A stretch of 64,000 nucleotides of DNA from an uncultured Candidatus Saccharibacteria bacterium (GCA_964490365.1 CAZBAG010000001.1:129512-193511), one strand, 5' to 3'. Positions 278 to 49,465 are shown, numbered from the stretch's first letter. Notes: a model not told the origin generated them from the sequence alone. Numbers and translations: made by a program.

Positions 278-306
278 TTGACAAATATATTTATATATGC
301 TATTAT
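278..306 (+). promoter_or_regulatory. Sigma70-like promoter TTGACA-17nt-TATTAT upstream of the 327..530 gene
   Basis: ttgaca at 278-283 and tattat at 301-306 with a 17-nt spacer, followed by the leader atatacaaatcctgaacacc and then ATG. Confidence 0.6.
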
Positions 307-326
307 ATATACAAATCCTGAACACC

Positions 327-530
327 ATGAAAAAGTTCATCCTGCTGTCGTTCCTTCTCATCTTCTGCTTCTCTACCCCTGTCTCTGTGTCGGCCACTGA
401 TGTGGTTGCCACCAGCGAGCAGGCTGAGTCGGGTTTCGATCGACCCAAGAAGCACAAAAAAACTTACGGTGTACGTAAGCAACCGAAGTTCCGTTCCTGC
501 AAAAATGCCAGGAAGAAACTCCGTCGCTAA
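327..530 (+). CDS. Small secreted, highly basic protein (67 aa); member of the GC-rich cassette class
   Basis: MKKFILLSFLLIFCFSTPVSVSA signal peptide, then a K/R-rich tail. G+C is clearly above the flanking DNA. It has its own consensus promoter and hairpin terminator. Confidence 0.55.
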   Translation: MKKFILLSFLLIFCFSTPVSVSATDVVATSEQAESGFDRPKKHKKTYGVRKQPKFRSCKNARKKLRR

Positions 531-547
531 GCCCTAGGGCTTACGAA

Positions 548-581
548 AAAAGACCCCCGCAAACACGCGAGGGTCTTTTTC
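548..581. terminator. Rho-independent terminator hairpin (gacccccgc...gcgagggtc followed by a T-run), likely bidirectional
   Basis: A GC-rich inverted repeat followed by tttttcttttt. It lies between the end of the 327..530 gene and the convergent end of gltX. Confidence 0.6.
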
Positions 582-584
582 TTT

Positions 585-1931
585 TTACGAAACTATTTCT
601 TGTATCTTTTTATATGCCACATTCAATCTTTGGATTGTTTCTTCTTTTCCTAATATATACGCTAGCGTGAATGGGTCAGGAGATTTTTGAAGCCCCGAAA
701 GCGCAAACCGAATTGGCCACAACACATCACCTCTTCCCTTTTCCTCAGCGTAATCCCAGACTGAAGATTTAATTGATTCTACAGAAGAAAAGTCAGCATT
801 TCCCAAAAAAGAAATAACGTTTTCCAAATGTGTCTTAGTTTGATATTCGTCAGAATTTTTCCAAATGAGATCGCGTGTTTCGTAATGTGGAAGTGCATTA
901 TAGAATGAAAGGTTTTCATTCTTTAAATCACTAAACTTGTGAATTCTTTCAGTCAGTGTTGGTAGTGCTCGCTCCAACATTTCTTCTGGGATATGTGCAA
1001 AGTGTTTAACACCTAGAAGTACTTCATCTGGTGATTTTTGAACAAGGTACTGTTTATTAAACCAATCCAGTTTTTCAATATTAAACACCCCACCACCACG
1101 TTGCACTTTTTCAAGAGAAAATTCTTTAATCAATTCTGAGAGAGAAAATAATTCCTTTTCAGTTCCAGGGTTCCAACCAATAAATGCCAAAAAGTTAATC
1201 ACGGCCTCCGGGAAATATCCCATATCTTTAAAATCAAGTAAGGCTGTTGCTCCATGTCGTTTAGAAAGCTTTGTTTTATCTGGCGCTAGCACAAGCGGTA
1301 TGTGCGCGTAGATTGGACGAGTAAAACCGAGCGCCTCAAGAATGAGAATTTGCCGTGGCGTATTTGCAATATGTTCCTGAGCACGAATAATATGACTCAC
1401 TTCCATAAGTCCATCGTCAACAACAACAGTAAGGTGATACAGTGGTGTCTCAATATCTTTTGCAATCACGAAGTCGCCCAAGTCAGTGGTGTCTACTTCA
1501 ATGTCACCTAGAATAACATCATGAAATGTTATATTTGTATTTGGATTTTTAAAACGAATCACCGATGCTCTTCCTGGTCCAGTCCTAGTTAATTTGGTAA
1601 GTGCTTGCCCATTAAATTCTTGTGTTTCATCAGAAATATACGCATGTCCAGAATCAAGAAGCTTTTGGATGTGCTCTTTATAGATCTCTGTACGCTCTGA
1701 TTGTCGGTAAAAAGAATCATAGTTCAAGCCAAGCCATGAGAATGAATCAATAATATTTTCTTCGAACTCTGGTTTTGAGCGTTCTTTGTCAGTATCCTCG
1801 ATACGTAAAATAAATTCTCCTCCATGTTTTTTTGCAAAGAGATATGAAAAAAGCGCCGTACGAGCAGAACCAACGTGAAATTTTCCCGTTGGGCTCGGAG
1901 CCATTCTTGTTACAATTTTTCGTTCTGACAT
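585..1931 (-). CDS. gltX: Glutamyl-tRNA synthetase
   Basis: Class I aaRS with a HIGH-type motif (PSPTGKFHVGS) and a KMSKS-type motif (KLSKR); 448 aa. Confidence 0.9.
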   Translation of the reverse strand: MSERKIVTRMAPSPTGKFHVGSARTALFSYLFAKKHGGEFILRIEDTDKERSKPEFEENIIDSFSWLGLNYDSFYRQSERTEIYKEHIQKLLDSGHAYISDETQEFNGQALTKLTRTGPGRASVIRFKNPNTNITFHDVILGDIEVDTTDLGDFVIAKDIETPLYHLTVVVDDGLMEVSHIIRAQEHIANTPRQILILEALGFTRPIYAHIPLVLAPDKTKLSKRHGATALLDFKDMGYFPEAVINFLAFIGWNPGTEKELFSLSELIKEFSLEKVQRGGGVFNIEKLDWFNKQYLVQKSPDEVLLGVKHFAHIPEEMLERALPTLTERIHKFSDLKNENLSFYNALPHYETRDLIWKNSDEYQTKTHLENVISFLGNADFSSVESIKSSVWDYAEEKGRGDVLWPIRFALSGLQKSPDPFTLAYILGKEETIQRLNVAYKKIQEIVS

Positions 1932-1932
1932 A

Positions 1933-7666: not shown

Positions 7667-7695
7667 TTGACAATAATAATTTAATATGTTATTAT
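7667..7695 (+). promoter_or_regulatory. Sigma70-like promoter TTGACA-17nt-TATTAT
   Basis: ttgaca at 7667-7672 and tattat at 7690-7695, followed by the C/A-rich leader caacgtaaaccaacacaacaacc and ATG at 7719. Confidence 0.6.
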
Positions 7696-7718
7696 CAACG
7701 TAAACCAACACAACAACC

Positions 7719-8063
7719 ATGGGAGAAACTCTCAACCTTACTAAGCGAATGATCTGGAACGGTCCAACGGAATTTGAACTTGTTCAATCACTCCTAAGGG
7801 GCTCTGAAGTGAATTTCTGGATCCTGTCCGAAGATAGTGATCCGGGCGAAATTCCACCAGACAACCGGCCTTGTGTCGTGGTTGGAATAGAACGATCTTT
7901 TGATGAACCAATGGAGTACCATCTTGCGGTGCAAATGATCGGACTCAAGACACCAGCACGACAATACTTCAAGTATCGGCCTCTCACCCACCAAGGTGAA
8001 TGGGTTGGATGCTTGGACATGGGTCACAAGGCATACGAGGGTCACAGCTTCCGTATGCCTTGA
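7719..8063 (+). CDS. Hypothetical protein (114 aa), GC-rich cassette gene
   Basis: G+C is elevated by eye. The product has no recognisable family. It is flanked by its own promoter and a hairpin terminator. Confidence 0.5.
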   Translation: MGETLNLTKRMIWNGPTEFELVQSLLRGSEVNFWILSEDSDPGEIPPDNRPCVVVGIERSFDEPMEYHLAVQMIGLKTPARQYFKYRPLTHQGEWVGCLDMGHKAYEGHSFRMP

Positions 8064-8080
8064 GCTTACAACACGCACAA

Positions 8081-8112
8081 AAAAGCCCTGCACATCGCGG
8101 GGCTTTTTTCTT
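8081..8112 (+). terminator. Hairpin terminator after the 7719..8063 gene
   Basis: aagccctgcacatcgcggggc followed by ttttttctttt. Confidence 0.5.
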
Positions 8113-9531
8113 TTACTTATCTTTCTTCGTAATCTTAATACTTAATTCATCCATTTGAGCTTGTGAGATTTCACTTGGTGAATCCATCATCGGATCCCTT
8201 CCCTCTCGTGTTTTTGGAAAAGCGATTACCTCTCTAATATTTGGTTCATTTTGAAGAATCATCATGAGTCGATCAAATCCCCAGGCTATTCCTCCGTGGG
8301 GGGGCGTTCCTGAACCAAGAGCCTTCAACATGTGTCCAAAATTACTTTGAATTTTTTCTTCAGAGTGACCGAGGATTCCTAGAATATTTTTAAGAATTTC
8401 TGGGTCATGTGCTCGAACAGAACCTCCACCAATTTCATAACCATTCAACACAATATCGTATTGCGCTGCAATCACATCACCAATATTTTTTCTCTCTTTG
8501 AGATTCTCGACATGTTCTGGTTTTGAAAGAGAAAACGGATTGTGGGTAAATGTCCATTCACCTTCCGCTTGTGGGTTGTCAGACGCACTGGTCTTTTCAA
8601 AAAACGGGAAATCTACGACCCAGCAAAACGCCAAAAGGTTTTGATCGTCTTTATTCTCTCGAATATCTGGTCGGTCGCTTCCATATTTTTCCATTGCCTC
8701 TTTATATGGGATTTTTGGAAATGGAATTTGTTGTATTTTTTTCTCTGGGTAGAGCTTCGTAACAAGTTCGATCAGAAGATTTTCTGTGACTGACATAACC
8801 TCTTCTTCAGATGCAAAGGAAAGTTCCATGTCGAGCTGTGTGAATTCTGGCTGTCGGTCACCACGCAAATCTTCGTCTCGCATACATCGTGCGAACTGAT
8901 AGTATCGTTCAATACCTCCAGCCATGAGAAGTTGTTTGTACTGCTGAGGAGATTGTGGAAGTGCGTAAAACTTTCCTGGATACACTCGTGAAGGCACGAC
9001 ATAGTCGCGCGCACCTTCTGGAGTTGATTTGGTGAAGATAGGAGTTTCGACTTCAACAAAGTTCTGTTCGTCGAGTTTTGACCGAACAAAATTTTGAACT
9101 TTGTGTCGAGTACGAAGATTCTTTTGAAGTCGTTCACTTCGTAAATCTAAATATCTGTTTTCGAGTCGTGTTTCTTCATTTACCTCTCGAGTGTCAGCGC
9201 CGATATTAAATACAGGTGTCTCTGCTTTATTCAAAACTTCCATCTCTAACACCTCAACTTCAATATCGCCATTCATCACCCCTTCTTTGATATTTCGTTC
9301 AGGGCGCTTGTTGATTTTCCCTTTTACAGAAACAACCCACTCTGTTCGAGTTTCTTTTGCAGTTTCCATGGCAAGAGATGCTGGTAACACCACGCCTTGC
9401 ACAGTTCCTGTTGCATCACGAAAATCAAAGAAAATCATTTTCCCTTGATCTCGCCTGACAGAAATCCAACCTTTTATTAAAACTTCTTGTGAGGCTGTTC
9501 CTCCTAGGTTTTTGATATACGTTCTTTGCAT
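8113..9531 (-). CDS. aspS: Aspartyl-tRNA synthetase (compact, without the GAD insertion)
   Basis: The class II motif RDEDLRGDRQPEFTQLDME matches AspRS. At 472 aa it is about 120 aa shorter than bacterial-type AspRS. Confidence 0.85.
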   Translation of the reverse strand: MQRTYIKNLGGTASQEVLIKGWISVRRDQGKMIFFDFRDATGTVQGVVLPASLAMETAKETRTEWVVSVKGKINKRPERNIKEGVMNGDIEVEVLEMEVLNKAETPVFNIGADTREVNEETRLENRYLDLRSERLQKNLRTRHKVQNFVRSKLDEQNFVEVETPIFTKSTPEGARDYVVPSRVYPGKFYALPQSPQQYKQLLMAGGIERYYQFARCMRDEDLRGDRQPEFTQLDMELSFASEEEVMSVTENLLIELVTKLYPEKKIQQIPFPKIPYKEAMEKYGSDRPDIRENKDDQNLLAFCWVVDFPFFEKTSASDNPQAEGEWTFTHNPFSLSKPEHVENLKERKNIGDVIAAQYDIVLNGYEIGGGSVRAHDPEILKNILGILGHSEEKIQSNFGHMLKALGSGTPPHGGIAWGFDRLMMILQNEPNIREVIAFPKTREGRDPMMDSPSEISQAQMDELSIKITKKDK

Positions 9532-9570
9532 ATGGCGCTATTCTAGCAGAAAATTTGAAAATATTAAATG

Positions 9571-9625
9571 AAAAAGACCCCAGAGCATAGCTCCGGGGCC
9601 CTTGCGTCCTCTCTTTGAGGACACA
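9571..9625 (-). terminator. Double hairpin terminator downstream of the 9641..10309 gene
   Basis: On the minus strand, gtcctcaaagagaggac and ccccggagctatgctctgggg are followed by tcttttt. Confidence 0.5.
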
Positions 9626-9640
9626 CTTCTTCTGCCTTTG

Positions 9641-10309
9641 TTAGGCGGGCACCTCTTCGGTGAAGAACTGTTGCGCCTTGAGCGTCTCGAGCGACTGCTC
9701 GTAGGTCGAGCGCGAGCTCTGCACCAAGTTCTGCGTCCAGCGTGCGATCGCCTTCATGGTCGTGTAGAAGTAGCGCTTTGCGAGGGCTTCGTACATCTCT
9801 TCGGTGATCTCACCGTTCTTCTCGATGTAGTCGTTCACCTCCTTGAGCTTCTTCGCACTCGTGTACACGATCTTGCCGGCGTTGGCTGCCGTGGTCGCCG
9901 CAGCGATGCTGTTGTAGTGGAGTGCGTTCTGAACCTCGCTGAAAGGTTCACCTTCGCTCACCACACCAGCGGTCTCGGCGATCTCAACCACCACGATGTT
10001 GAAGGGGATCTTCTGATCCTTTCCTTTTGTCACATCGAAGCTTGTGATACGTGCCATCATCCCCAACGGGAATCCGCTCTTGGGATACCCCTGGTGCATG
10101 ACCACCCCATCCTCGGTCTTCGTGAAATCCTGGTTCTTCACGCCAGCATTCGCGAGCAGGTTATACACCTTCGGTGATGCCTCGATCTTACCGCCGAGCT
10201 TGCTCAAGCGGTTGAGTTCGTGCACCATCTCAGGGCTCACTGCCGTACCCATGACCAGGGCTTGGATGCTTCCTTTGGTCGTCTTGCTCATGTGCTTTAC
10301 CGTCACCAT
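9641..10309 (-). CDS. Hypothetical protein (about 222 aa), strongly GC-rich cassette gene
   Basis: The highest G+C in the window by eye (roughly mid-50s %). The start is ambiguous between MVTVKH, MSKTTK and MQVHIK. The product is unrecognised and Ala/Val-rich. Confidence 0.5.
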   Translation of the reverse strand: MVTVKHMSKTTKGSIQALVMGTAVSPEMVHELNRLSKLGGKIEASPKVYNLLANAGVKNQDFTKTEDGVVMHQGYPKSGFPLGMMARITSFDVTKGKDQKIPFNIVVVEIAETAGVVSEGEPFSEVQNALHYNSIAAATTAANAGKIVYTSAKKLKEVNDYIEKNGEITEEMYEALAKRYFYTTMKAIARWTQNLVQSSRSTYEQSLETLKAQQFFTEEVPA

Positions 10310-10358
10310 CCTGTATATTGGGTTTTTGATGTGAACCTGCATTGGCTCACAAAGGAGT

Positions 10359-10386
10359 ATATTAACCAAATAGAAAATATTGTCAA
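10359..10386 (-). promoter_or_regulatory. Sigma70-like promoter (TTGACA, 16-19 nt spacer, TAATAT/TATACT) for the 9641..10309 gene
   Basis: The minus strand reads gcccTTGACAatattttctatttggttaaTATACT. It lies immediately downstream of a hairpin. Confidence 0.5.
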
Positions 10387-10405: not shown

Positions 10406-10431
10406 CAAAAACCCCTTTTTGAGGGGTTTTT
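10406..10431. terminator. Hairpin terminator (aaaaaccccttttttgaggggttttt)
   Basis: A perfect G/C stem flanked by A and T runs. It follows the stop of the 10438..11175 gene on the minus strand. Confidence 0.55.
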
Positions 10432-10437
10432 GAGTCT

Positions 10438-12192: not shown

Positions 12193-12702
12193 TTATTTAC
12201 ACGTCGCTGATAGATAGATTATTTCAGTAGCTTCTTTCGTTTTGTCTGGAACGAGCATATCGTCTTTATCAACAAGCGGATAGCGCAATTTAATCAAGTT
12301 CCCATCTTTTTGCATGTATTCTTCTTGTTCTTTTTGACTAGAACCTTCTACGGTGTAACTAAACACAACAGTTATCTTACCTTCGTCGACGTTACCCGAA
12401 AAGGTTCCTTCATATCCATTTGTCATATCCGGACCAGCCTGAGTTCCCTGTTTTGTTCCAAATACTGTACTGTTTTCAATCTTTAGCTCGATATATTCTT
12501 CTACTGAATACGGCGCATCTTCTGTTACTGATTGGGTACGAGCAAAACACAGCGCATTAGAAGCGGGAACTTTCGGCGTTACAACAGATTCTTCTTCCGA
12601 AATTTCTCCAGGAACAACTATAGGTTTTGTATCTAAAATAAACCAAAATACTGCTGAATACGCAGCGAGAGCAAGTATAAGAATGATAATTATTTTTTTC
12701 AT
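12193..12702 (-). CDS. Secreted hypothetical protein
   Basis: An N-terminal signal/TM segment (MKKIIIILILALAAYSAVFWFI) and no recognised domain. Confidence 0.5.
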   Translation of the reverse strand: MKKIIIILILALAAYSAVFWFILDTKPIVVPGEISEEESVVTPKVPASNALCFARTQSVTEDAPYSVEEYIELKIENSTVFGTKQGTQAGPDMTNGYEGTFSGNVDEGKITVVFSYTVEGSSQKEQEEYMQKDGNLIKLRYPLVDKDDMLVPDKTKEATEIIYLSATCK

Positions 12703-12704: not shown

Positions 12705-12795
12705 TTCCTAGCGAGGAGTATCGACAAGCTTGCTTGTATGATCTCCGAACGACGGAAATATACGAGACGAGCGAAGCGAGTGCTCTTATATTAAT
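12705..12795. repeat. Intergenic repeat element, copy 1 (about 85% identical over about 56 nt to the copy at 34878..34965)
   Basis: Shared core ATGATsTCCGArygACGrAAATATAyGAGACGArCGmAGyGAGTGCTCTTAT, plus a shared left edge tatttyctagcgag. Confidence 0.5.
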
Positions 12796-13557: not shown

Positions 13558-13598
13558 AGGAATATTTTACCATACATAACTTTAGCAATACATAAAAT

Positions 13599-13627
13599 AA
13601 AAAGTCCGCCGGCAAAACCGGCGGACT
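13599..13627 (-). terminator. Hairpin terminator downstream of the 13635..14330 gene
   Basis: gtccgccgg caaaa ccggcggac, with a T-run on the minus strand. Confidence 0.55.
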
Positions 13628-13634
13628 GAAATTG

Positions 13635-14330
13635 TTATTCAAGACCCAAACTTTCCTTTTTTCTCACACCACGCTTGTAGGACTTGCGGATATCTCGCTC
13701 ACGGAGTTTGCGTCCTTTACGTACTCGTACTACTTTTTCATAGTACCATATGTACTTCACCCACTTTTCATGGAAATCACGAAGCTCTTTGGTTGGCAAC
13801 ATTAATCTATTTATGAACACTTGAAGATCTCCCTTGCGTTTACCCTTCCACATATATGGATGAAGAGGAACATCTCCTGCACAAGACTCAAGTTCTGTTA
13901 GTAAGGTTACATTGGATTTGTCATGCGGACGCTTTTCAAGAGCAATTGAAAGCATTTCCATCATCCAAAGTGCTCTTTGTAGGAACTTCCCTGTGCGAGT
14001 AGTTTTCCAAGGAATTATTACTTCCTCCTTACCCTTCTTACTGAGGGTTGTGATGAGTACCCACAACTTGCCGGCTTTGGTAAACTTGTGCTCTTTAGGA
14101 TCATAGCTCGTTATCACTCGTATTGTCAGGTTGTCTACCTGTTTTTGCACGATAACTTGTCCAGCAACCTCCCGAATGCGAGGACTATCAGGCGGGACGA
14201 TACCCTGCATTACCTGATTACGAGCTTCACGCTCTGGAGAGATGGGTGCAAAACCCAGTTTCCCAGCTTTTGCGAGAAATGACTCGAACTTTTGTCGAGC
14301 ATAACGAAGAGAAATAAACTTCTTTTTCAT
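13635..14330 (-). CDS. Hypothetical highly basic (K/R-rich) protein, 231 aa, cassette gene
   Basis: G+C is moderately elevated. The leader is C/A-rich (aacgaacgaaacaaacgtacaaagcaATG). It has its own TTGACA -35 box and its own terminator. No recognised family. Confidence 0.5.
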   Translation of the reverse strand: MKKKFISLRYARQKFESFLAKAGKLGFAPISPEREARNQVMQGIVPPDSPRIREVAGQVIVQKQVDNLTIRVITSYDPKEHKFTKAGKLWVLITTLSKKGKEEVIIPWKTTRTGKFLQRALWMMEMLSIALEKRPHDKSNVTLLTELESCAGDVPLHPYMWKGKRKGDLQVFINRLMLPTKELRDFHEKWVKYIWYYEKVVRVRKGRKLRERDIRKSYKRGVRKKESLGLE

Positions 14331-14355
14331 TGCTTTGTACGTTTGTTTCGTTCGT

Positions 14356-14384
14356 TATGTTGCCAGAGATTTTAGAAAATGTCA
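14356..14384 (-). promoter_or_regulatory. Promoter with a consensus TTGACA -35 box and a weak -10, for the 13635..14330 gene
   Basis: On the minus strand, TTGACA (forward tgtcaa at 14379-14384) lies directly after the hairpin at 14388..14420. Confidence 0.4.
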
Positions 14385-14387
14385 AAA

Positions 14388-14420
14388 GAAAAGACCTACC
14401 ACTCTTGAAGTGATAGGTCT
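14388..14420 (-). terminator. Hairpin terminator downstream of the PNP gene
   Basis: agacctacca...tgataggtct followed by ttttctttt on the minus strand. Confidence 0.55.
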
Positions 14421-14426
14421 TGAGAC

Positions 14427-15299
14427 TCAAAGCCTTTCAACAAGATCTGCGATCAATTTCGCAAAAGCTGGACCACCTTCTTTTGCTTTTAAAAGGTTAT
14501 CCTTGTGAGACAAACCATGGGCACCAGCAACATTCGAGACCTGAGACAAAACACAGATCTCTATCCCATTGCGATCCTTCTTTGCACCAGCATCTTTTCG
14601 CTCTTCTGCACCGGCCATGTGGTTTAGGGCGGTTACATCGGGAATAGTTGACATACCCACCGTGTTAGCGCCGAGCATTCGTAAAGCACGCACGTCCGCA
14701 CGGGTCTCAAACTCACGACCAGGACGCATTGCCAGTACAACCTCTTGAATACGAGGATCAATCTGTTTAACGAGATCAATCATTCTGCGAGAATAGGGTT
14801 GGCTCATATCTACATGAAGACTGCTGCCCACCCCACCAATCCTCTCGAGAATATCAGCATTCCCCATCAACGGATATGAGTCGGAGAAAAGAGAAAGATG
14901 ATCCTCTACAACAACAATTGAACCAACGGGAAACTTTTCATCAAGAGATCCCACAAGGTTAGTGCTAATAAACTGAGAGCACCCCCACCACGCAAGAGTT
15001 CGAGATGTTGTCACGGTTTTGTGAATATCACCATGCTCGTTGAGGTGAGTTCTGCCGGGAAACCAAATTGCTGATTTTCCAGCAAGCTCTCCGTAAATAA
15101 CATGGTGAAAGTGACCATCTACTGTTGGCAAAGGAAAATGATCTTCTAGTTCAACCTCTTTCACATGTGTAAACTGATCTCTTAGGTCATGAGGTCCCGA
15201 AGATCCGGTAATAATTGCAAGTTCTGGTGCCTTGCCGAACTTATTAGCAAGCCACTTTGCACCTCCAGTAATATTGTTAAAATGCTCCAGTGTAAGCAT
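14427..15299 (-). CDS. Purine nucleoside phosphorylase (trimeric PNP/MTAP family)
   Basis: Alignable by eye to mammalian-type PNP (..AIITGSSG.., ..GANTVGMSTIPDV.., ..VVVEDHLSLFS..). G+C is elevated. It has its own promoter and terminator. Confidence 0.8.
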   Translation of the reverse strand: MLTLEHFNNITGGAKWLANKFGKAPELAIITGSSGPHDLRDQFTHVKEVELEDHFPLPTVDGHFHHVIYGELAGKSAIWFPGRTHLNEHGDIHKTVTTSRTLAWWGCSQFISTNLVGSLDEKFPVGSIVVVEDHLSLFSDSYPLMGNADILERIGGVGSSLHVDMSQPYSRRMIDLVKQIDPRIQEVVLAMRPGREFETRADVRALRMLGANTVGMSTIPDVTALNHMAGAEERKDAGAKKDRNGIEICVLSQVSNVAGAHGLSHKDNLLKAKEGGPAFAKLIADLVERL

Positions 15300-15337
15300 G
15301 GGAACAGGTTTTAGTGTTTAAAGTACGCCGACTTCAA

Positions 15338-15366
15338 ATACTATAGTATTCTTTTAATTTTTACAA
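15338..15366 (-). promoter_or_regulatory. Sigma70-like promoter TTGTAA-17nt-TAGTAT for the PNP gene
   Basis: The minus strand reads TTGTAAaaattaaaagaatactaTAGTAT, directly downstream of the hairpin at 15374..15399. Confidence 0.45.
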
Positions 15367-34877: not shown

Positions 34878-34965
34878 CTAGCGAGAACGCAGGAAAATTT
34901 ATTTTCATGATGTCCGAGTGACGAAAATATATGAGACGAACGCAGTGAGTGCTCTTATTTTAGAC
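34878..34965. repeat. Intergenic repeat element, copy 2 (upstream of dnaK); matches 12705..12795
   Basis: About 85% identity over the ATGATGTCCGAGTGACG...GAGTGCTCTTAT core, plus the shared tattttctagcgag edge. Confidence 0.5.
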
Positions 34966-35818: not shown

Positions 35819-35883
35819 AGATTTTCTTCGCTTTCGCGTGATTAATTAAATTTATAACTTGATTATATAAACTTATTTAAATT

Positions 35884-35919
35884 TTGACAAGTTTTTTATG
35901 CTCGTAAAATACTTGTCAA
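35884..35919. promoter_or_regulatory. Perfect 9-bp inverted repeat TTGACAAGT-N18-ACTTGTCAA in the divergent grpE / PaaX-like intergenic region (operator and/or overlapping -35 boxes)
   Basis: ttgacaagt at 35884-35892 and acttgtcaa at 35911-35919. A third half-site, attgtcaat, lies just before the 35944 start codon. Confidence 0.45.
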
Positions 35920-35943
35920 ATATTATAAGAATCTGCTAAAATA

Positions 35944-36474
35944 TTGTCAATGGCGAAAGTAAACAAAATCCAAGAAAAAATCCTTGAATTCCTAAACGGC
36001 AAAAAAGCCTCAGAAAAGAGTGTTTTATTTGAAGGCGTAGAAAGTACTGAGAACAGCAAGTACGCCCTTTCTAGGACGCTTAAAGGCCTTAAAGAGGGTG
36101 GTTTAGTGGAGGAAATAGAAACAGAACGATCGGCTTTCTACAAAATAACCCCTGAGGGACGAAACAAGCTCAGAAATATCCGCCTGTCTTCCCCAACAAG
36201 CTTGGTGTCTACAAACTGGGATGGTTTTTGGAGAATCGTGATCCTCGACCTTCCAGAAGATCGAAAAAGTGAAAGAAATTCCCTGCGCTATATTTTAAAA
36301 AAGGCGGGGTTTGTGTGTCTCAAAAATTCAGTTTGGTTTTCACCTTACCCGCTCGAACATTTGTTTATGAATATTAAAAAAGATATGGGACTCGGTGATG
36401 AATTGATTATTCTTGTCACACAATATATCGACCCAATTTCTGAAGAAAAGCTATTAGAGGTTTTTAAAGGGTAG
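35944..36474 (+). CDS. PaaX-like winged-helix transcriptional regulator
   Basis: An N-terminal wHTH plus a conserved WDGFW-containing C-terminal region, as in PaaX-family repressors. It is transcribed divergently from grpE. Confidence 0.5.
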   Translation: MSMAKVNKIQEKILEFLNGKKASEKSVLFEGVESTENSKYALSRTLKGLKEGGLVEEIETERSAFYKITPEGRNKLRNIRLSSPTSLVSTNWDGFWRIVILDLPEDRKSERNSLRYILKKAGFVCLKNSVWFSPYPLEHLFMNIKKDMGLGDELIILVTQYIDPISEEKLLEVFKG

Positions 36475-37100: not shown

Positions 37101-37153
37101 AATATATTGACCCAATTTCTGAAGAAAAATTATTGGAAGTTTTTAAAGGATAA
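37101..37153 (+). repeat. Direct duplicate of the 3' end of the 35944..36474 gene (matches 36418..36474 at about 90%)
   Basis: ATATTGACCCAATTTCTGAAGAAAAATTATTGGAAGTTTTTAAAGGATAA matches ATATCGACCCAATTTCTGAAGAAAAGCTATTAGAGGTTTTTAAAGGGTAG and encodes the same YIDPISEEKLLEVFKG* peptide. The two copies flank the doc-antitoxin module. Confidence 0.6.
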
Positions 37154-37154
37154 G

Positions 37155-37184
37155 AAAAAGGGCGTTCCGTTTGGAACGCCCTTT
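37155..37184. terminator. Hairpin terminator (gggcgttcc gttt ggaacgccc)
   Basis: A perfect 9-bp stem with A and T runs on both sides. It lies downstream of the 37211..37834 gene on the minus strand. Confidence 0.55.
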
Positions 37185-37210
37185 GCTTCGCTTCTAGTGA
37201 GGAGTACCGA

Positions 37211-37834
37211 TCAGTAATCTCCTTCAAACATTCTGTCGAACCGCTCATCTGCGCGTCGCTGATTATCGTCATCTTCGCGTTGCTGGTCACTTACTTCTTG
37301 CATCTGATCAGCCACCTGGTCCAGAGACATGTCATCGAGCTCAGGATCTTCCTCTTCCCAAGCCCTACTTTGTTCATGACTCCACTCAAGTTGCATGATC
37401 TTGTTCGCACGACTCTCATTGGTGATCTCATGCCGAGTCCGCTTCAATACAAAGCGAGAAATCGTTGGGATATTATTTCCCTGATCATCCCACTTCGTTG
37501 AAGAGTTTACCCGGCGAACCACGATAGTGCGAGTTCCAAAGAAGTAGAACTCATCACCTTCTCTGAAGAAGGTTGCCCACGACTCGGTATTTGAGACATG
37601 GATCATGGGTCGCGGTTCACCTCGGCGGACCCTCAGAGTATCATTGAGCATCCAATGAGAGCTCACCATGGCGATCCACCAATCACTGACATCGAGATTG
37701 ATCGGAAGGCCGGCAACTTTCTTCGGGAGCACACTATCCTCGTGTTCTGTTTCAACGACCTCTCCCGCAAAGAAGTTCTTGAGACGTCCGATCAAAAGAC
37801 CCAGCACTTTATCAGAAAGAATGATCTTCTGCAT
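37211..37834 (-). CDS. Hypothetical protein with a highly acidic C-terminal tail (207 aa), GC-rich cassette gene
   Basis: G+C is elevated. It has its own TTGACA-17-TATATT promoter and its own terminator. The family is unrecognised. Confidence 0.5.
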   Translation of the reverse strand: MQKIILSDKVLGLLIGRLKNFFAGEVVETEHEDSVLPKKVAGLPINLDVSDWWIAMVSSHWMLNDTLRVRRGEPRPMIHVSNTESWATFFREGDEFYFFGTRTIVVRRVNSSTKWDDQGNNIPTISRFVLKRTRHEITNESRANKIMQLEWSHEQSRAWEEEDPELDDMSLDQVADQMQEVSDQQREDDDNQRRADERFDRMFEGDY

Positions 37835-37890
37835 CTTCGTAGGTTTTGAGCCAAGTTTCCTCGGCGGTTTGTACTTATTTTCTTAACTAT

Positions 37891-37919
37891 AATATAGCAT
37901 ATTTAATGCTATATGTCAA
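37891..37919 (-). promoter_or_regulatory. Sigma70-like promoter TTGACA-17nt-TATATT
   Basis: The minus strand reads aTTGACAtatagcattaaatatgcTATATT. Confidence 0.55.
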
Positions 37920-37922
37920 TAC

Positions 37923-39596
37923 TTACCTATTGAGGAACACTCTCGCTAATTGCACATCAAAATACGAAGTATTCCCCCCTACTTTACTTTTCACCGGTGA
38001 AAGATTCAGTTCGCCTGTTGCATCATAGAGTTTTTGAAACGTCACCAGAATATCTTTAAACTTCTTTCCCTTTGGCTTAAGATACGAGACTTCTTCTTTT
38101 TCAATCTTCCCTTCCATTACCAATTTTTCAATATGAGTTAAGACAGTTTCTTTCGTTAAGCCTCTTTCGACTGCAATATCATCAATACTTTTTTGTTCGA
38201 GCAGCAAAACTTTTGTTTTTTCAAACGTACTTGTTTTATCAAGTTCAGCTTCACGAGCTTGTACGTCAATCACTTGGATTGATCCTTCAGATCGAATGAT
38301 AAAATCTTCTTGGGATTTTTGTATTTCCTCTGGTGTTTTTTTGTGTAAATAGTCTTGTATGTGGGCCGACTTACTTCGAAACTTTTTATCAGCTTCAATA
38401 ATTTTTGGATGTACCATCAGCGCTTGAGCATTGAATCCCAAAAGCTTAAGCCCTTCTAACGTTCGTACACGAGAAAGCGCCACGTAGCCTTGTCCATATT
38501 CAAAAGCACGACCTAAATCGATCTCAGCGGCATCTAGGGACATTCCTTGGCTTTTGTGGACCGTAATAGCCCACGCCAGACGAAGTGGTACCTGGGCAAT
38601 AGAGGCGATGATTTTATCGCCATCTTCAATACTCCACGACACAGGTTCGATGAGTAATTCTTTACCTTGATTCGTGACAATAATCGGGTACCCAGTTTCC
38701 TTTTCAAAATCAATCACCTCACCGAGTGTGCCGTTTACATACCCCACTTCGAAATTGTTTTTCGTACACATCACCACCGCTCCGATTTTCAAACATAGAT
38801 TTTCTGGAGAAAGACAACTTTCTTTTAAACGTTGCACGTGGTTCCCCTTTCCCTTTGAAACCATCTCATAGTACTCTTCATCTTGATCAATTTTTGCGAG
38901 TTCTTCTTGGTTTATTTTATCGACATCTGCGTTGTGCGTATACAGTTTTGTGGACTTAATCACATCTTCAAAAGAAACATCGAGCCTGTCACGAAGTTCT
39001 TCAAATTCTTCTTCAACATCTCCACTACGGATACGGTCAAGAATCCCCAGCAAAGCATGATCTTCTTGACGGTGTTGTTCGGTGATATAGGCAACGAGCG
39101 GATTTACCTCTTTCCAAGCAGCTGACTCAAAAGCAAATTGGGTCGCTTCACCTTTTTTCGTGATTGGTGGAAGCTGAAAAAAGTCGCCCACGACGATAAC
39201 CTGCATGCCACCAAACGGTAGATTATTTCTCCTAAACGATTTACAGACTTTATTGACCGAATCAAAAAGATCTCCGGAGAGCATTGAAATTTCATCAATG
39301 ATGAGAACTTTTGTTTGCTCGTATCGCTTCCAAAGATATTTTTTACCTTCAAGTTCATCAACTTCGTAGTCAGTGATTTTCTGCCGAGCGCCAATGCCTG
39401 ACCATGAGTGAATGGTTACTCCGCCAATGTGTGTTGCGGCAATACCGGTTGAAGCAGTTATTGCCGCAGAAATATCATGTTCTTTCAGATACTTTGTGTA
39501 TTGATTTAAGACATATGTTTTACCCGCACCAGGAGCACCAGTGAGAAAAACATTGGCGCCAGTTTTTAGGATTGTGAGAGCGTCTGATTGAGTCAT
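37923..39596 (-). CDS. RecD/Pif1-like ATP-dependent DNA helicase (AAA_30 + UvrD_C-like) with a C-terminal HTH
   Basis: Walker A GAPGAGKT, Walker B IIDEISM and SF1 helicase motifs (...VHKSQG...); 557 aa. Confidence 0.7.
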   Translation of the reverse strand: MTQSDALTILKTGANVFLTGAPGAGKTYVLNQYTKYLKEHDISAAITASTGIAATHIGGVTIHSWSGIGARQKITDYEVDELEGKKYLWKRYEQTKVLIIDEISMLSGDLFDSVNKVCKSFRRNNLPFGGMQVIVVGDFFQLPPITKKGEATQFAFESAAWKEVNPLVAYITEQHRQEDHALLGILDRIRSGDVEEEFEELRDRLDVSFEDVIKSTKLYTHNADVDKINQEELAKIDQDEEYYEMVSKGKGNHVQRLKESCLSPENLCLKIGAVVMCTKNNFEVGYVNGTLGEVIDFEKETGYPIIVTNQGKELLIEPVSWSIEDGDKIIASIAQVPLRLAWAITVHKSQGMSLDAAEIDLGRAFEYGQGYVALSRVRTLEGLKLLGFNAQALMVHPKIIEADKKFRSKSAHIQDYLHKKTPEEIQKSQEDFIIRSEGSIQVIDVQAREAELDKTSTFEKTKVLLLEQKSIDDIAVERGLTKETVLTHIEKLVMEGKIEKEEVSYLKPKGKKFKDILVTFQKLYDATGELNLSPVKSKVGGNTSYFDVQLARVFLNR

Positions 39597-39618: not shown

Positions 39619-39652
39619 ATAAAAAACGCCGACCCTTTAGGGGTCGGCGCTG
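39619..39652 (-). terminator. Hairpin terminator (gccgaccc ttta ggggtcggc) downstream of the 39671..40078 gene
   Basis: A perfect stem with a T-run on the minus strand. Confidence 0.55.
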
Positions 39653-39670
39653 CTTCTTTAGGTTTGTACT

Positions 39671-40078
39671 TTATCGTAGGGCCGCCAAGGCTTCTCCAAT
39701 TTTATTGTCGCCGTCACGATCAGGTGCAATGGCGATGATCTTATCCAGAAGCGCTTCCAGTGCTTGATTAGTGCTGTACCCACCAACTGGAGCCTGGCCA
39801 TCTAGCAAGTGCCCGCCTCCGTAGAACAATTTGAGTTTACATTTGGGCACGTGAGGCTGGGCATCACTGTCTAAAAAGAATATGACTTTGATGAGGCACA
39901 TCTTTCTGATGCTGTACTGGGAGTTCAAGTTTCGAGGCATAAAGCCAAACCCTGATGGTGCATGATGATCGATACAGTAATTAACCATCACGTTTGATCC
40001 TTTCCAATTCTTCTCAACAATCGTCTTCAGATCGTGGAGCTTCAATAAGGTCACATTGTATTCGAGCATGTCTTTCAT
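39671..40078 (-). CDS. Hypothetical protein (135 aa), GC-rich cassette gene
   Basis: The leader is gaaatagaaaccaaacccaaaccaacgtaccATG. G+C is elevated. The family is unrecognised. Confidence 0.5.
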   Translation of the reverse strand: MKDMLEYNVTLLKLHDLKTIVEKNWKGSNVMVNYCIDHHAPSGFGFMPRNLNSQYSIRKMCLIKVIFFLDSDAQPHVPKCKLKLFYGGGHLLDGQAPVGGYSTNQALEALLDKIIAIAPDRDGDNKIGEALAALR

Positions 40079-40109
40079 GGTACGTTGGTTTGGGTTTGGT
40101 TTCTATTTC

Positions 40110-40139
40110 ATACTATGTCATGTACAATAATTTTGTCAA
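40110..40139 (-). promoter_or_regulatory. Sigma70-like promoter TTGACA-18nt-TAGTAT
   Basis: The minus strand reads gTTGACAaaattattgtacatgacaTAGTAT, directly after the hairpin at 40146..40171. Confidence 0.5.
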
Positions 40140-40145
40140 CATAAG

Positions 40146-40171
40146 AAAGGCGCTCCGTAAGGAGCGCCTTT
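40146..40171. terminator. Hairpin (aggcgctcc gtaa ggagcgcct)
   Basis: A perfect 9-bp stem with a GNRA-type loop. It separates two tandem cassette genes. Confidence 0.55.
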
Positions 40172-40178
40172 GAAGAAG

Positions 40179-40703
40179 CTAGCGATGTACTCTGTTTGCC
40201 CTGTAGACACTAAACATGATCACTTGGTGGAGTGTCTTTGGATCAACGAACCGTGCCCTGATGTAAGTACGGCAATTTTTTGGATGAACACCTTGTAGCC
40301 CATTCAAAAACTTCAGTTTGAACATCCGCCTATTGATCAGGTACTGATCTTCACTACTACCCACGCCACTCGGTGCTGGAGTTGTGAAAACATACTCCAC
40401 GAGTCGCATATCGGAAGGTGGAACAAGAACCTCTTCTTCTCCATGCTCGGAAGAAGAGCCATTTTGACCTTCATACACAATTGGCACCGAAGCGTTGTTA
40501 TAGAAGGTTCTATAACGCCAGCGTTTAATGCAACCTGCCTTGCGCCACATTTTACGGTCAAAGTCTCGCCACTGCTTGAATGCTTCGATGAACTGCCTCT
40601 GATGTTCAGGAGATTCTCTTGTTCCAGATTTTATAATCTGAAAAGATTCCTCTAAGAGCTTGGTCCGCAACATAACGAGCTGACGTAGTTTGTCTGTAGC
40701 CAT
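40179..40703 (-). CDS. Hypothetical Trp/Arg-rich protein (174 aa), GC-rich cassette gene
   Basis: The start context is ccaccATGG. G+C is elevated. The family is unrecognised. Confidence 0.5.
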   Translation of the reverse strand: MATDKLRQLVMLRTKLLEESFQIIKSGTRESPEHQRQFIEAFKQWRDFDRKMWRKAGCIKRWRYRTFYNNASVPIVYEGQNGSSSEHGEEEVLVPPSDMRLVEYVFTTPAPSGVGSSEDQYLINRRMFKLKFLNGLQGVHPKNCRTYIRARFVDPKTLHQVIMFSVYRANRVHR

Positions 40704-40728
40704 GGTGGAACGTGGTTTGGTCTGGTTA

Positions 40729-40758
40729 TAAAATACAAGATTTAAGAGTCGTGGTCAA
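40729..40758 (-). promoter_or_regulatory. Sigma70-like promoter TTGACC-18nt-TATTTT
   Basis: The minus strand reads aTTGACCacgactcttaaatcttgTATTTT, directly after the hairpin that ends rpsI. Confidence 0.45.
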
Positions 40759-40766: not shown

Positions 40767-40790
40767 AAAATCCCCCATAGGGGGGGATTT
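40767..40790. terminator. Hairpin terminator (atccccc atag gggggat) immediately after the rpsI stop
   Basis: A perfect stem followed by a T-run on the minus strand. Confidence 0.55.
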
Positions 40791-47425: not shown

Positions 47426-47428
47426 CTT

Positions 47429-49150
47429 TTATACAAGCACTGCTTTAATACGTCGAACCCCGGCAGATGACGCTTCTTCTTTTTGGATCTTAAATGTTCC
47501 GAGAATATTTGTATGCTCTACGTGTGGACCACCACAAAATTCTTTTGAAATTGCATCACCTTTTTCATCTTCTATAAAATACACAGAAACAACATCTTCA
47601 TACTTCGCACCGAATTCCATTTCTGCGCCAATCTGCTCTGCTTCTTGTTTTGGCATTTCTCTTTTTATAACCTTGAAATCTTTTCGTATACCCTCATTCA
47701 CTATTTTTTCAACTTCTGCTTTTTCTTCATCTGTCATCTTTCGATCAAATGAAAAATCAATTCGAAGTCGTTCTTCGGTAATGTTTGAACCTCTTTGTTT
47801 TACTTCTTTTCCAAGCACTTTTTGAAGTGCAGCTAACAGTAAATGGTGGGCAGTATGCAGCTTCACAATAGCTTCACTCGTTCCAGCAAGACCGCCTTTA
47901 AATTTTTGTTCGCCACCAGCACGTGACTTGTCTTGATGTTCTTTCATTTTTTTATCAAAGAGATCTAGATCAATAGATTCTCCTTTTTCTTTGGCGAGCT
48001 CTGTGGTCATCTCAATCGGAAAACCATATGAAGTGAAGAGCAGGAACGCGTCACGCTCGCCTTTTTCAAATTCTTTTAACCCCTTCTCTAATGTATTAAG
48101 AAATTTTTTTTCTTCTCCATCAACTACAGATTTTATATGCATAGCATCTAGGTTGTACGAGTTCTTATAGTTCTCACAAATAGCATCAATGAGCGAAACG
48201 ACTGAATCAAGTCCGAGTTTTTTTGCGTGTCGTATTGCACCACGTAAAAGCCTTCTTAGAATATAGGCTCTGTCTGAGTTCCCTGGAATTACACCGTCTT
48301 CAATAAGAAAACAACTTGCACGCATGTGGTCGGCGACAATTCTTCTTGATCGCTCGTCGCCACTTGGCAACACATTAAAAATATATTCAAAAGCATCAGT
48401 GTCATAGACACTTTCTCTTCCGTTCACCACAGCCGTGATTCTCTCAAGACCCATACCTGTGTCTACATTTTTCTGAGAAAGCTTTCCGATAACTTTGCCC
48501 TCTTTTGATTCGTATTCCATGAATACGTTGTTCCAAATCTCGATTACTTTTTCTTCTTTTTGAGCTTGTAAAAAGGCTTCAGGTGAAAGCTCACCGCACA
48601 TACCAGTGACGTCGTAGAAAATTTCTGTATCTGGCCCACATGGTCCGTTTTCTCCTGGGCCCCACCAGTTATCTTCTTTACCTAGAAAATAAATACGAGA
48701 TTCTGGGATTCCGTTTTTCATCCAAATAGTTTTTGATTCTTCGTCGCGTGGAGCACTGTTATCACCTTCAAAACAAGTAACATAGAGCCTTGTTGCATCA
48801 AGACCAAGACCTTTTTCTTTTGATGTTAAAAATTCAAAACTCCAAGCAATAGATTCTTCTTTGAAGTAGTCACCGAGTGACCAATTTCCAAGCATTTCAA
48901 AAAATGTTAAGTGACGATTGTCACCAATATCATCAATGTCTCCTGTGCGAAGACATTTTTGTGCGCTTGCGAGTCTTGTACCCTTTGGATGTTCTTTTCC
49001 CAGCAAGTAAGGAACGAGAGGTTGCATACCGGCTGTTGTAAAGAGGACTGAGTTGTCATTTTCAGGAATAAGTGATGCTGAAGGTAGAATCGTGTGACCT
49101 TTTTCTTCAAAGAATGCTAGGAATTTTTCGCGAATTTGGTTACTTGTCAT
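47429..49150 (-). CDS. alaS: Alanyl-tRNA synthetase, short form (catalytic + tRNA-binding + editing domains; no C-Ala domain)
   Basis: The AlaRS N-terminus (FLAFFEEKGHTILPSASL...FTTAGMQ) and the editing-domain motif HTAHHLL. About 573 aa versus about 870 in typical bacteria. Confidence 0.8.
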   Translation of the reverse strand: MTSNQIREKFLAFFEEKGHTILPSASLIPENDNSVLFTTAGMQPLVPYLLGKEHPKGTRLASAQKCLRTGDIDDIGDNRHLTFFEMLGNWSLGDYFKEESIAWSFEFLTSKEKGLGLDATRLYVTCFEGDNSAPRDEESKTIWMKNGIPESRIYFLGKEDNWWGPGENGPCGPDTEIFYDVTGMCGELSPEAFLQAQKEEKVIEIWNNVFMEYESKEGKVIGKLSQKNVDTGMGLERITAVVNGRESVYDTDAFEYIFNVLPSGDERSRRIVADHMRASCFLIEDGVIPGNSDRAYILRRLLRGAIRHAKKLGLDSVVSLIDAICENYKNSYNLDAMHIKSVVDGEEKKFLNTLEKGLKEFEKGERDAFLLFTSYGFPIEMTTELAKEKGESIDLDLFDKKMKEHQDKSRAGGEQKFKGGLAGTSEAIVKLHTAHHLLLAALQKVLGKEVKQRGSNITEERLRIDFSFDRKMTDEEKAEVEKIVNEGIRKDFKVIKREMPKQEAEQIGAEMEFGAKYEDVVSVYFIEDEKGDAISKEFCGGPHVEHTNILGTFKIQKEEASSAGVRRIKAVLV

Positions 49151-49186
49151 ATACAGCAAAGTATAGTTGAAAGAGGGTAAAATAGA

Positions 49187-49216
49187 AAGTCCCGTCAGCT
49201 TTGCTGACGGGACTTC
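49187..49216 (-). terminator. Hairpin terminator (agtcccgtcagc tttg ctgacgggact)
   Basis: A perfect 12-bp stem with a T-run on the minus strand, between the tiny 49238 gene and the alaS start. Confidence 0.5.
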
Positions 49217-49237
49217 TGCCACCACTTCACACACTGA

Positions 49238-49399
49238 TCAACTGATCACCTCCGCTTTCGGGTATCGCTTCTTCCAGAACTCAAGCGCCTTGGAATTGGC
49301 GACAGTGATAACCGTTCGGTGATCAAGTTGAACCTTGATAGCCTTGAGACCCTCTTTCACTGGTTGTGTGAGAACCACCGCCTTCTTCTTTCGTGGCAT
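49238..49399 (-). CDS. Tiny basic protein (53 aa), GC-rich cassette gene; below the ORF-track cutoff
   Basis: MPRKKKAVVLTQPVKEGLKAIKVQLDHRTVITVANSKALEFWKKRYPKAEVIS. It has a perfect TTGACA-16-TATAAT promoter and its own terminator. Confidence 0.4.
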   Translation of the reverse strand: MPRKKKAVVLTQPVKEGLKAIKVQLDHRTVITVANSKALEFWKKRYPKAEVIS

Positions 49400-49437
49400 G
49401 ATAATTTGGTTGATTTGGTGAACTAACTCATTTTTAT

Positions 49438-49465
49438 ATTATAACATATTTAAGATTATTGTCAA
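49438..49465 (-). promoter_or_regulatory. Sigma70 consensus promoter TTGACA-16nt-TATAAT
   Basis: The minus strand reads gcgtaaTTGACAataatcttaaatatgtTATAATataaaaatg. It abuts the mnmA stop. Confidence 0.6.

Follow-up and report, generated by a model that had tools for sequence, protein, structure and literature searches.

A 64,000-nucleotide (nt) stretch of DNA from an uncultured Candidatus Saccharibacteria bacterium (GCA_964490365.1, CAZBAG010000001.1:129512-193511; the window below always means this whole stretch) carries 15 loci at which a single G+C-rich open reading frame (ORF) is enclosed by a promoter and a terminator of its own, and one further candidate. We refer to these loci as cassettes. 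They are probably native flexible-genome genes of a lineage of the Candidate Phyla Radiation (CPR), each packaged as an autonomous monocistronic unit. The loci had been proposed in an earlier description made without database searches (the sequence-only reading). All 15 ORFs were found where it had placed them, and the class proved coherent: the units are monocistronic, have their own promoter and terminator and a leader, differ from the host genes in composition, and encode mostly lineage-restricted proteins. Some of these small ORFs are left uncalled in public assemblies. Lengths of products are in amino acids (aa).

Cassette 1, 278-586, plus strand: TTGACA-N17-TATTAT and a 20-nt leader; 67-aa signal-peptide protein at 327-530; terminator at 547-586.
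Cassette 2, 7667-8115, plus strand: TTGACA-N17-TATTAT and a 23-nt CA leader with AAACC; 114-aa orphan at 7719-8063; terminator at 8079-8115.
Cassette 3, 9567-10386, minus strand: TTGACA-N16-TAATAT and a 49-nt leader; 222-aa protein at 9641-10309, with a G+C content at third codon positions (GC3) of 0.79; terminator at 9603-9567.
Cassette 4, 13597-14385, minus strand: TTGACA-N17-CAACAT and a 26-nt leader; 231-aa basic protein with no assigned fold at 13635-14330; terminator at 13627-13597.
Cassette 5, 14385-15370, minus strand: weaker promoter TTGATT-N16-TACTAT and a 43-nt leader; trimeric-type purine nucleoside phosphorylase (PNP) at 14427-15299; terminator at 14421-14385.
Cassette 6, 15859-17319, plus strand: TTGAAA-N16-TAAAAT and a 56-nt leader ending in CAAACC; NhaD Na+/H+ antiporter at 15943-17262; bidirectional terminator at 17282-17319.
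Cassette 7, 18143-18538, minus strand: TTGACA-N17-TATTTT and a 36-nt leader (AAACCAAACC); 91-aa orphan at 18198-18473; terminator.
Cassette 8, 23642-24106, minus strand: promoter scoring 12/12 and a 45-nt leader with (AAACC)x4; 111-aa orphan at 23698-24033; terminator.
Cassette 9, 26174-26702, minus strand: promoter scoring 12/12 and a 40-nt leader with a conserved hairpin that has a CTTACC loop; 135-aa secreted protein at 26227-26634; terminator.
Cassette 10, 26709-27242, minus strand: TTGACA-N17-TACTAT and an 18-nt leader; 143-aa secreted protein at 26764-27195; terminator.
Cassette 11, 27242-27729, minus strand, straight after the terminator of the L21 gene: TTGACA-N17-TACGAT and a 20-nt leader; 129-aa secreted protein at 27291-27680; terminator.
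Cassette 12, 37151-37919, minus strand: TTGACA-N17-TATATT and a 56-nt leader with a conserved hairpin; 207-aa acidic-tailed orphan at 37211-37834; terminator.
Cassette 13, 39619-40139, minus strand: TTGACA-N16-CATAGT and a 33-nt leader (AAACCAAACCCAAACC); 135-aa orphan at 39671-40078; terminator.
Cassette 14, 40140-40758, minus strand: TTGACC-N17-TATTTT and a 26-nt leader (CCAAACC); 174-aa basic orphan at 40179-40703; terminator.
Cassette 15, 49180-49465, minus strand: promoter scoring 12/12 and a 38-nt leader; 53-aa basic ORF at 49238-49399, whose coding status is the least certain of the 15; the strongest terminator, -24.9 kcal/mol.
Candidate 16th unit, absent from the earlier list, 58412-58796, plus strand: -10 box TGGTATTTT with no good -35 box and a 19-nt CA leader (CAAACC); 106-aa ORF at 58459-58779, GC3 0.43; terminator at 58768-58790.

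An exact TTGACA -35 box was present in 12 of the 15 cassettes, the spacer was 16-18 nt in every one, and the promoters scored 8-12 of 12. The near-consensus sigma70 promoters of the sequence-only reading thus stand for most of the set, whereas PNP (TTGATT, 8/12), NhaD (TTGAAA), and 40179 (TTGACC) have weaker sites without TTGACA. The window held 13 sites scoring at least 11/12, against 2.0 ± 1.5 expected from 100 dinucleotide shuffles. TTGACA itself was under-represented window-wide (32 observed vs. 61 expected), and 21 of the 32 copies were intergenic.

Between the -10 box and the ATG, the leaders span 18-56 nt. Their last 20 nt were 48% A, 32% C, 8% G, and 11% T, with A at -3 and C at -2 and -1. 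No Shine-Dalgarno (SD) 4-mer occurred in any of the 15. The earlier description of C/A-rich leaders without an SD sequence was accurate, but the lack of SD is not peculiar to the cassettes, as even a 4-mer precedes only three of the 62 host genes of the window. The motif AAACC was found in 11 of the 15 leaders (12 of 16 with the candidate unit) compared with 3.1 ± 1.5 in composition-preserving shuffles, and six of the seven copies of ACCAAACC in the window fall in cassette leaders.

A terminator hairpin followed by a T-run lies 3' of every cassette ORF, as had been claimed. The folding energies of these hairpins run from -16.4 to -24.9 kcal/mol, where the background is -7.4 ± 3.4. Thirteen of these hairpins are perfect, two have an internal mismatch, and their sequences are unrelated to each other. 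It had also been said that a strong hairpin abuts each -35 box; one does so in nine cassettes, and in eight of those nine it is the terminator of the previous unit. The hairpin beside the -35 box at 7719 is an AT-rich inverted repeat between divergent genes. Spacer, leader, and terminator sequences are unique to each unit, and a direct-repeat search revealed neither a boundary repeat family nor target-site direct repeats at the cassette edges. The predicted folding energy of cassettes was -1.19 kcal/mol in the start window (-25 to +15) and -7.16 kcal/mol in the coding body (40-nt windows); host genes gave -3.08 and -4.35 kcal/mol, respectively.

That the cassette ORFs are richer in G+C than the host genes had been judged by eye, and the computed values agree. 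GC was 0.43-0.56 in cassettes and 0.29-0.43 in host genes; GC3 was 0.52 and 0.30 (Mann-Whitney p=3.7e-9). The first and second codon positions (GC1, GC2) of cassettes are slightly raised too, and their third positions are nearly equimolar.

We compared the window with syntenic loci of relatives (L004, L006, L007, L008, L021, L103, and L104), whose host proteins were typically 75-93% identical to those of the window. Eight of the 15 cassettes had syntenic orthologues there, which share the promoter type and likewise carry C/A-rich leaders and terminators. Mean amino-acid identity was 0.43 for these cassettes compared with 0.78 for host genes. Fourfold-degenerate sites were near saturation: identity was 0.32 in cassettes (0.26 expected) and 0.42 in host genes (0.32 expected). 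The cassette orthologues had a GC3 of 0.40-0.74, against 0.14-0.43, mostly 0.2-0.38, for the host genes of the same loci. Orthologues of cassette 4 were 54-63% identical, with GC3 of 0.50-0.53, and those of cassette 6 were 46-58% identical, with GC3 of 0.40-0.57. Homologues of cassette 3 come from five other lineages, share only 26-51% identity, and have GC3 of 0.70-0.88. They had a TTGACA promoter wherever upstream DNA was available. In the four of these five lineages with flanking DNA, the cassette 3 family adjoins AspRS upstream (L021, L101, and L104) or is separated from it by one intervening gene (L102). Because such diverged syntenic orthologues are still rich in GC3, the high GC3 is maintained and is not what remains of a recent import. 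Its persistence may be due to selection on mRNA structure, to a GC bias linked to recombination, or to exchange among a pool of related genomes.

These comparisons bear directly on the proposal that the cassettes were recently acquired by horizontal transfer, as foreign DNA of higher GC whose composition still has to drift toward that of the host. Transfer would explain the atypical GC at all three codon positions, the near-uniform third-position usage, and the scarcity of homologues for most products. PNP and the products of 7719, 37211, 39671, and 40179 have no orthologue in the relatives fetched, and Saccharibacteria are naturally competent (PMC10187176). Against transfer, eight cassettes have orthologues that are equally GC3-rich in every lineage, in relatives with near-saturated fourfold sites, and the GC-richest gene keeps its composition next to AspRS (where the flanks are known) at very low identity. 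No donor clade is visible, as an exhaustive hidden Markov model search with cassette 3 retrieved just 14 cluster representatives among 1.84 billion proteins. Neither an integrase nor a tRNA gene nor a boundary repeat was found beside the cassettes, and their promoters and leaders obey the host's own grammar. For the conserved cassettes, recent transfer is largely refuted, and we consider it very unlikely as an account of the set.

Gene content varies from slot to slot. In the AspRS/ScpA slot, the window has the 114-aa orphan, L021 a 75-aa membrane protein, L101 a 669-aa helicase, and L102 a 146-aa protein. Downstream of Pif1, the genes in the slot differ between L027, L028, and L029; a metagenome scan with the Pif1 helicase found relatives and no orthologues of 37211, 39671, or 40179. 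No PNP orthologue occupied the PNP slot in L006, L103, or L104. This turnover, together with one tree incongruence considered below, suggested horizontal exchange or replacement among relatives. The comparisons show that cassettes lie in slots between operons, that they are passed on at syntenic positions but change much faster than their neighbors, and that they are gained, lost, or replaced slot by slot. In every lineage examined, their codon usage stays at about 50% GC3.

GC-biased gene conversion at slots that recombine often among strains, for example by natural transformation, would raise GC3, divergence, and turnover together. It would account for the fast evolution, the slot turnover, and the incongruent tree, and also for the increase in GC at all codon positions, in a group with documented competence. 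We regard it as quite unlikely: the promoters and leaders in the same slots are AT-rich and not GC-enriched, although they are under constraint, and AT-rich genes also occupy variable slots (L021, L028).

Another explanation for the GC3 and for the consensus signals is translational selection for very high expression, acting through C- and G-ending codons. Consensus promoters, unstructured leaders, and strong terminators are typical of highly expressed genes. Codon by codon, in the window and its relatives, usage shifted for Phe, Ile, Tyr, Lys, Glu, and Gln and did not for Asp and His; the C-ending shift (Phe, Ile, Tyr, Ser) and the G-ending shift (Lys, Glu, Gln) were reproduced in the relatives. 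The result is nevertheless near 50:50 usage in the cassettes and not a strong skew, and GC1 and GC2 are also up. Genes for ribosomal proteins, rpoA, secY, dnaK, and grpE have GC3 of just 0.22-0.33, and the fast evolution of the cassette proteins is the opposite of what highly expressed genes typically show. Strong expression is, in our judgment, distinctly unlikely to be the cause.

Promoters and leaders were better conserved than the cassette ORFs, and leader hairpins covaried. In the leader of cassette 3 (10310-10362, minus strand; window, L019, L021, L100, L101, and L102), a hairpin shows compensatory changes at all five predicted pairs; behind it, 3-8 nt ahead of the ATG, stands an invariant AAAAACC(C)AA. 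These two features form a candidate cis-regulatory or ribosome-loading element. The promoter and structured leader of cassette 12 (37835-37925; GCCGAnG...TTGGC, TTAAAAC) had a mean column identity of 72% across three genomes (window, L028:1745-1872, and L025:2565-2691). The ORFs behind this platform encode 207 aa in the window and 218 and 147 aa in the other two genomes; in the one pair compared, window and L028, they had no similarity (E=17). A promoter and leader conserved before dissimilar ORFs suggests that ORFs could be swapped behind a conserved platform.

Two observations on leaders are added here. The hairpin in the 5' untranslated region of cassette 9 (26640-26665, minus strand) was compared in five species (window and the orthologous leaders of L004, L006, L007, and L008): its CTTACC loop is invariant, and its stem changes are compensatory. 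The same loop caps the terminator at 23038-23008. In L025, the cassette 12-type module sits on the opposite side of the pif1 gene.

Host genes are expressed in another style. SD motifs are essentially missing throughout this group of Patescibacteria: a 4-mer was present in 0-10% of the genes of ten related loci (L004-L014). An extended -10 box lies 4-12 nt before the ATG in 4-40% of the genes of the window and of these loci, 12-25% in most of them. In about 12 host genes that come first in their unit, a TAnnnT box ends 6-11 nt before the ATG, and in nine of them it has a TG extension (TGnTAnAAT).

Host genes with an extended -10 box near the ATG: 6817, 8113, 12814, 21994, 35950, 37923, 57364, 58795, and 59603.

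None of the 15 cassettes has a -10 box at this distance. A -10-like box placed just a few nucleotides before the start codon serves as the in-silico signature of leaderless genes (PMC3160421). We therefore read the core operons as leaderless, and the host unit-first genes look as if they give leaderless mRNAs. The sequence-only reading had called host promoters weak and non-consensus; what is found instead is this extended box close to the ATG.

Nor is the grammar of promoter and terminator private to the cassettes. When housekeeping promoters were checked, grpE and a gene for a sigma-like (sigma-region-4) protein proved equally consensus. Such promoters also precede the Fic region and three units without an ORF at 23008-23650, and host operons are closed by the same kind of terminator (e.g., 21360-21391, 40768-40790, and 10406-10432). 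Since the ORF-less units share the promoter and terminator style, the grammar is not specific to GC-rich ORFs. It is the organism's own.

Three ORF-less promoter-to-terminator units, 23008-23650, minus strand: TTGACA at 23645 and 23405; terminators at 23443-23425, 23252-23223, and 23038-23008.
grpE heat-shock promoter region, 35862-35950, minus strand: one 12/12 and one 11/12 site; grpE GC3 0.33.

The real distinction between the classes lies elsewhere, between leaderless-looking core operons and leadered, AAACC-bearing cassettes with an unstructured start and a structured coding body.

Some of the host loci deserve a description of their own. The sigma-like gene (53870-54901, minus strand; promoter TTGACA-N17-TAGAAT) encodes 343 aa, in which only a sigma-70 region-4 segment (residues 13-73) and an RNA polymerase delta/HARE-HTH-like segment (222-281) were recognized; the protein could be a -35-binding or RNA polymerase-associated factor. 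The intergenic region between the divergent grpE and PaaX-like regulator genes (35884-35950) contains three TTGACA boxes as an inverted repeat (TTGACAAG...CTTGTCAA). This region is preserved in L028 and L029 and probably serves the neighboring regulator as its operator. The three ORF-less units are candidates for new small RNAs; the middle one (about 23218-23372) has a folding z of -3.6, and L004 shows conservation of its 3' half. We dropped the idea that a GU-rich small RNA at 23218-23372 pairs with the CAAACC leaders, because L004 does not preserve the GGUUUG and GUUUGG motifs of this RNA.

In the likeliest mechanism, each cassette is an autonomous unit that would be read by the housekeeping sigma factor through its own -35/-10 promoter. 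Core operons would be transcribed as leaderless mRNAs, with internal genes translated by coupling, whereas on cassette mRNAs the ribosome would load independently of SD on the unstructured, G-poor C/A pad, which probably acts as an S1-type or CA-type enhancer. The terminators would keep each unit apart from the core operons with their leaderless mRNAs and coupled translation. A bolder version, tentative and in our view unlikely, proposes two expression regimes: a leaderless core, and flexible genes on modular platforms made of a consensus promoter and a gene-specific structured 5' untranslated region with a (C)AAACC pad at its end. This pad would replace the SD sequence, a GC-rich structured body would be selected to confine loading, and ORFs would be swappable behind the conserved platform, as the cassette 12-type promoter and leader suggest. 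Selection for a structured coding body could maintain GC3, but AT-rich leadered host genes argue against a general rule.

Several findings weigh against the reading of the cassettes as native flexible-genome units. No orthologue of 327, 7719, 37211, 39671, 40179, 49238, or PNP was detected in the relatives fetched, and recent gain may account for these seven. In the 26227 family, the L004 and L007 proteins are mutually closest (66%) although the two are distant by host genes, which hints at exchange or hidden paralogy. The edges of the class are blurred: the candidate 16th unit lacks a -35 box, three cassette promoters lack TTGACA, and the GC3 of PNP, NhaD, and 13635 is only 0.37-0.47. AAACC lies anywhere between -1 and -16 with respect to the ATG and is thus less tightly placed than a true SD sequence. 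The leadered host genes grpE and sigma-like are AT-rich, so the leader alone does not explain the GC-rich coding sequences. Finally, start sites, leaderless status, transcript boundaries, and translation were all deduced from sequence.

The sequence-only reading had also raised an engineered or chimeric origin. The idealized promoters and terminators, and a few leaders with a Kozak-like ACC ATG ending, would suit an engineered construct, and assembly chimerism or binning contamination would be the other artificial sources. The independent-assembly check covered two cassettes. Two independent Logan assemblies contain cassette 1 with 100% identity, both junctions included, and cassette 3 has the same gene context in four. 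Because junctions or context recur in this way, the units are neither chimeric nor engineered. Orthologous units occur in metagenome-assembled genomes (MAGs) from unrelated projects (NCBI, ENA, JGI, and Logan), no parts are reused between units, and promoters and leader hairpins are conserved between species, with the hairpins covarying. We give an artificial origin practically no weight; on these comparisons, the units are natural and native to the genome.

The surroundings are those of a cellular chromosome. Window GC is ~39%. Pfam and NCBIfam matches identified GluRS, an AspRS/LysRS-type enzyme, a short AlaRS, DnaB, RecR, and L21, and also DnaK, GrpE, and a Pif1-type helicase; a cluster of rpoA, secY, and ribosomal-protein genes is predicted from ORF sizes and order. 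A scan of a genome collection with DnaB returned Patescibacteria/CPR MAGs (59-95% identity; labelled Ca. Saccharibacteria or Paceibacteria) and a single non-CPR match, one distant Bacteroidales. Since the matches are all but one Patescibacteria/CPR and core cellular genes are present, the window is part of the chromosome of a Patescibacteria (CPR) bacterium with a small genome. ARAGORN found no tRNA genes in it, and Rfam gave no match over the whole window at the gathering threshold or in 22950-23700 at an E-value threshold. No recombinase was present among the ~30 of ~77 window ORFs scanned against Pfam, a scan that included no search aimed at intI/attI.

Other features of the host genes were observed along the way. 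The longest ORF of the short AlaRS (about 570-600 aa) begins at GTG 49234 (region 49138-49234); this start would cross the terminator hairpin of cassette 15 (49216-49186), and the true start must therefore lie further downstream. The gap between dnaB and recR is 3 nt in the window, and in L004 (11400-11800) a four-helix-bundle gene of the 23S rRNA intervening-sequence type is inserted between them. Both dnaK and the gene at 12193-12702 are preceded by a 56-nt element (84% identical, at 12738-12793 and 34907-34962), which could be a heat-shock operator that they share. The 3' end of the PaaX-like regulator gene is duplicated in a 52-nt direct repeat (88% identical, 36422-36473 and 37101-37152). 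Between the copies lie a Fic/DOC gene and a 54-aa ORF with their own TTGACA promoter; this stretch looks like an inserted toxin-antitoxin-like module and is missing from L028 and L029.

Most cassette products had been called unrecognizable apart from a mammalian-type PNP and an NhaD-like antiporter, and these two were indeed the only ones to match curated families. The PNP is of the trimeric type, with human PNP as its best PDB match (E=2e-27) and a score under the NCBIfam cut-offs; NhaD matches TIGR00775/NF038006. Signal-peptide proteins numbered four, where three had been counted. The 222-aa protein of cassette 3, which gene callers start at an upstream ATG to give a 233-aa product, has an inosine monophosphate (IMP) cyclohydrolase/ForH-like fold. 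The protein families are very narrow: word-indexed searches of 5.8 billion sequences returned three proteins each for two cassettes and nine for a third. None of the 10 orphan proteins matched a PHROG family, save for two marginal low-complexity matches, and PADLOC gave a single marginal match for them (E=0.005). A viral-contig scan with the 231-aa protein, the only cassette protein scanned, found no viral relative. All-against-all BLAST of 36 cassette-type proteins recovered syntenic orthologue groups only and no superfamily. The set thus comprises accessory functions: secreted proteins, an NhaD antiporter, a PNP, an IMP-cyclohydrolase-like protein, and orphans.

Experimental knowledge of the start of transcription and translation in CPR/Patescibacteria is almost nil, and the window offers a clean, testable picture. 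If it is true, it would improve gene calling and start-codon prediction in CPR genomes, supply native strong promoter, leader, and terminator parts for new Saccharibacteria genetic systems, and provide a marker for fast-evolving genes of these epibionts, probably for host interaction and salvage. The GC3 richness that lasts across deeply diverged orthologues in AT-rich genomes is an unexplained evolutionary signal. A leaderless core beside an SD-less, leadered, GC-rich class was not found described for Patescibacteria in the literature searched, where one paper on the group mentions leaderless translation just in passing. The combination of known elements appears undescribed for CPR bacteria.

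Among known systems, phage morons are closest in form. A moron has its own promoter and factor-independent terminator, deviates in composition, and is inserted between genes that are adjacent in relatives (PMC2920897). The cassettes share the sigma-70-type promoter and factor-independent terminator around a single gene, a composition unlike that of their neighbors, and hot-spot slots with varying genes between conserved ones. They could accordingly be imagined as morons or prophage remnants dispersed in the chromosome. Scanning IMG/VR with the grammar as a DNA pattern yielded 70 matches, mostly redundant phage families without a following ATG, and one contig family (L036, L072, L085, and L090) with really similar modules. 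Contig L090 (IMGVR_UViG_3300030060_002616) bears at least eight near-identical modules, TTGACA-N17-TATTATAAT...CAAACCAAnnAAACCA-ATG, of the TTGACA-TATAAT-CAAACCAA-ATG form, before small ORFs; other small ORFs among them use AGGAGG SD sites. An SD-less C/A-rich leader is thus also used by some phage genes. A phage origin of the cassettes is nonetheless highly improbable. They sit in a cellular chromosome among genes for aminoacyl-tRNA synthetases, DnaB, ribosomal proteins, and the cell wall, so that the defining phage residence is missing. Many are vertically conserved over deep divergence, and the PHROG, PADLOC, and viral-contig searches gave nothing convincing for the proteins scanned.

Integron cassettes are likewise compact single-ORF units, mostly of unassigned function, with a hairpin after each and content that varies between relatives. 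They differ in being promoterless (with a common Pc), attC-ended, and next to intI, whereas the units described here each have their own promoter and are dispersed, not arrayed. The hairpins here are unrelated, near-perfect GC stems with a T-run and form no repeat family, in a comparison with attC that included no search for its core motifs. A genomic island produced by recent transfer does not fit well either: eight cassettes have syntenic orthologues and seven have none detected, there are no tRNA genes in the window and no boundary repeats at the cassettes, and only the Fic module has a flanking repeat, of 52 nt. The units differ from synthetic constructs in lacking reused standard parts and in being present in environmental assemblies and related species.

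For translation, the nearest parallels are CA-rich enhancers. Experiments have shown that CA-rich or ACA elements enhance translation and that ACAA repeats can stand in for an SD sequence (PMC3879156); reduced structure near the start is a general signature of non-SD genes (PMC5397173). Like GcvB-target enhancers, ACAA repeats, and S1 ligands, the cassettes have a C/A-rich, G-poor pad near the start with flexible spacing, and their start window is predicted to be unstructured (-1.2 kcal/mol). The enteric elements differ in that they assist an SD sequence; the cassettes have none, their motif is (C)AAACC and not ACA, and its enhancer role is putative. The likeness to the leaderless organization of Actinobacteria, Deinococcus, and archaea belongs to the host unit-first genes and not to the cassettes.

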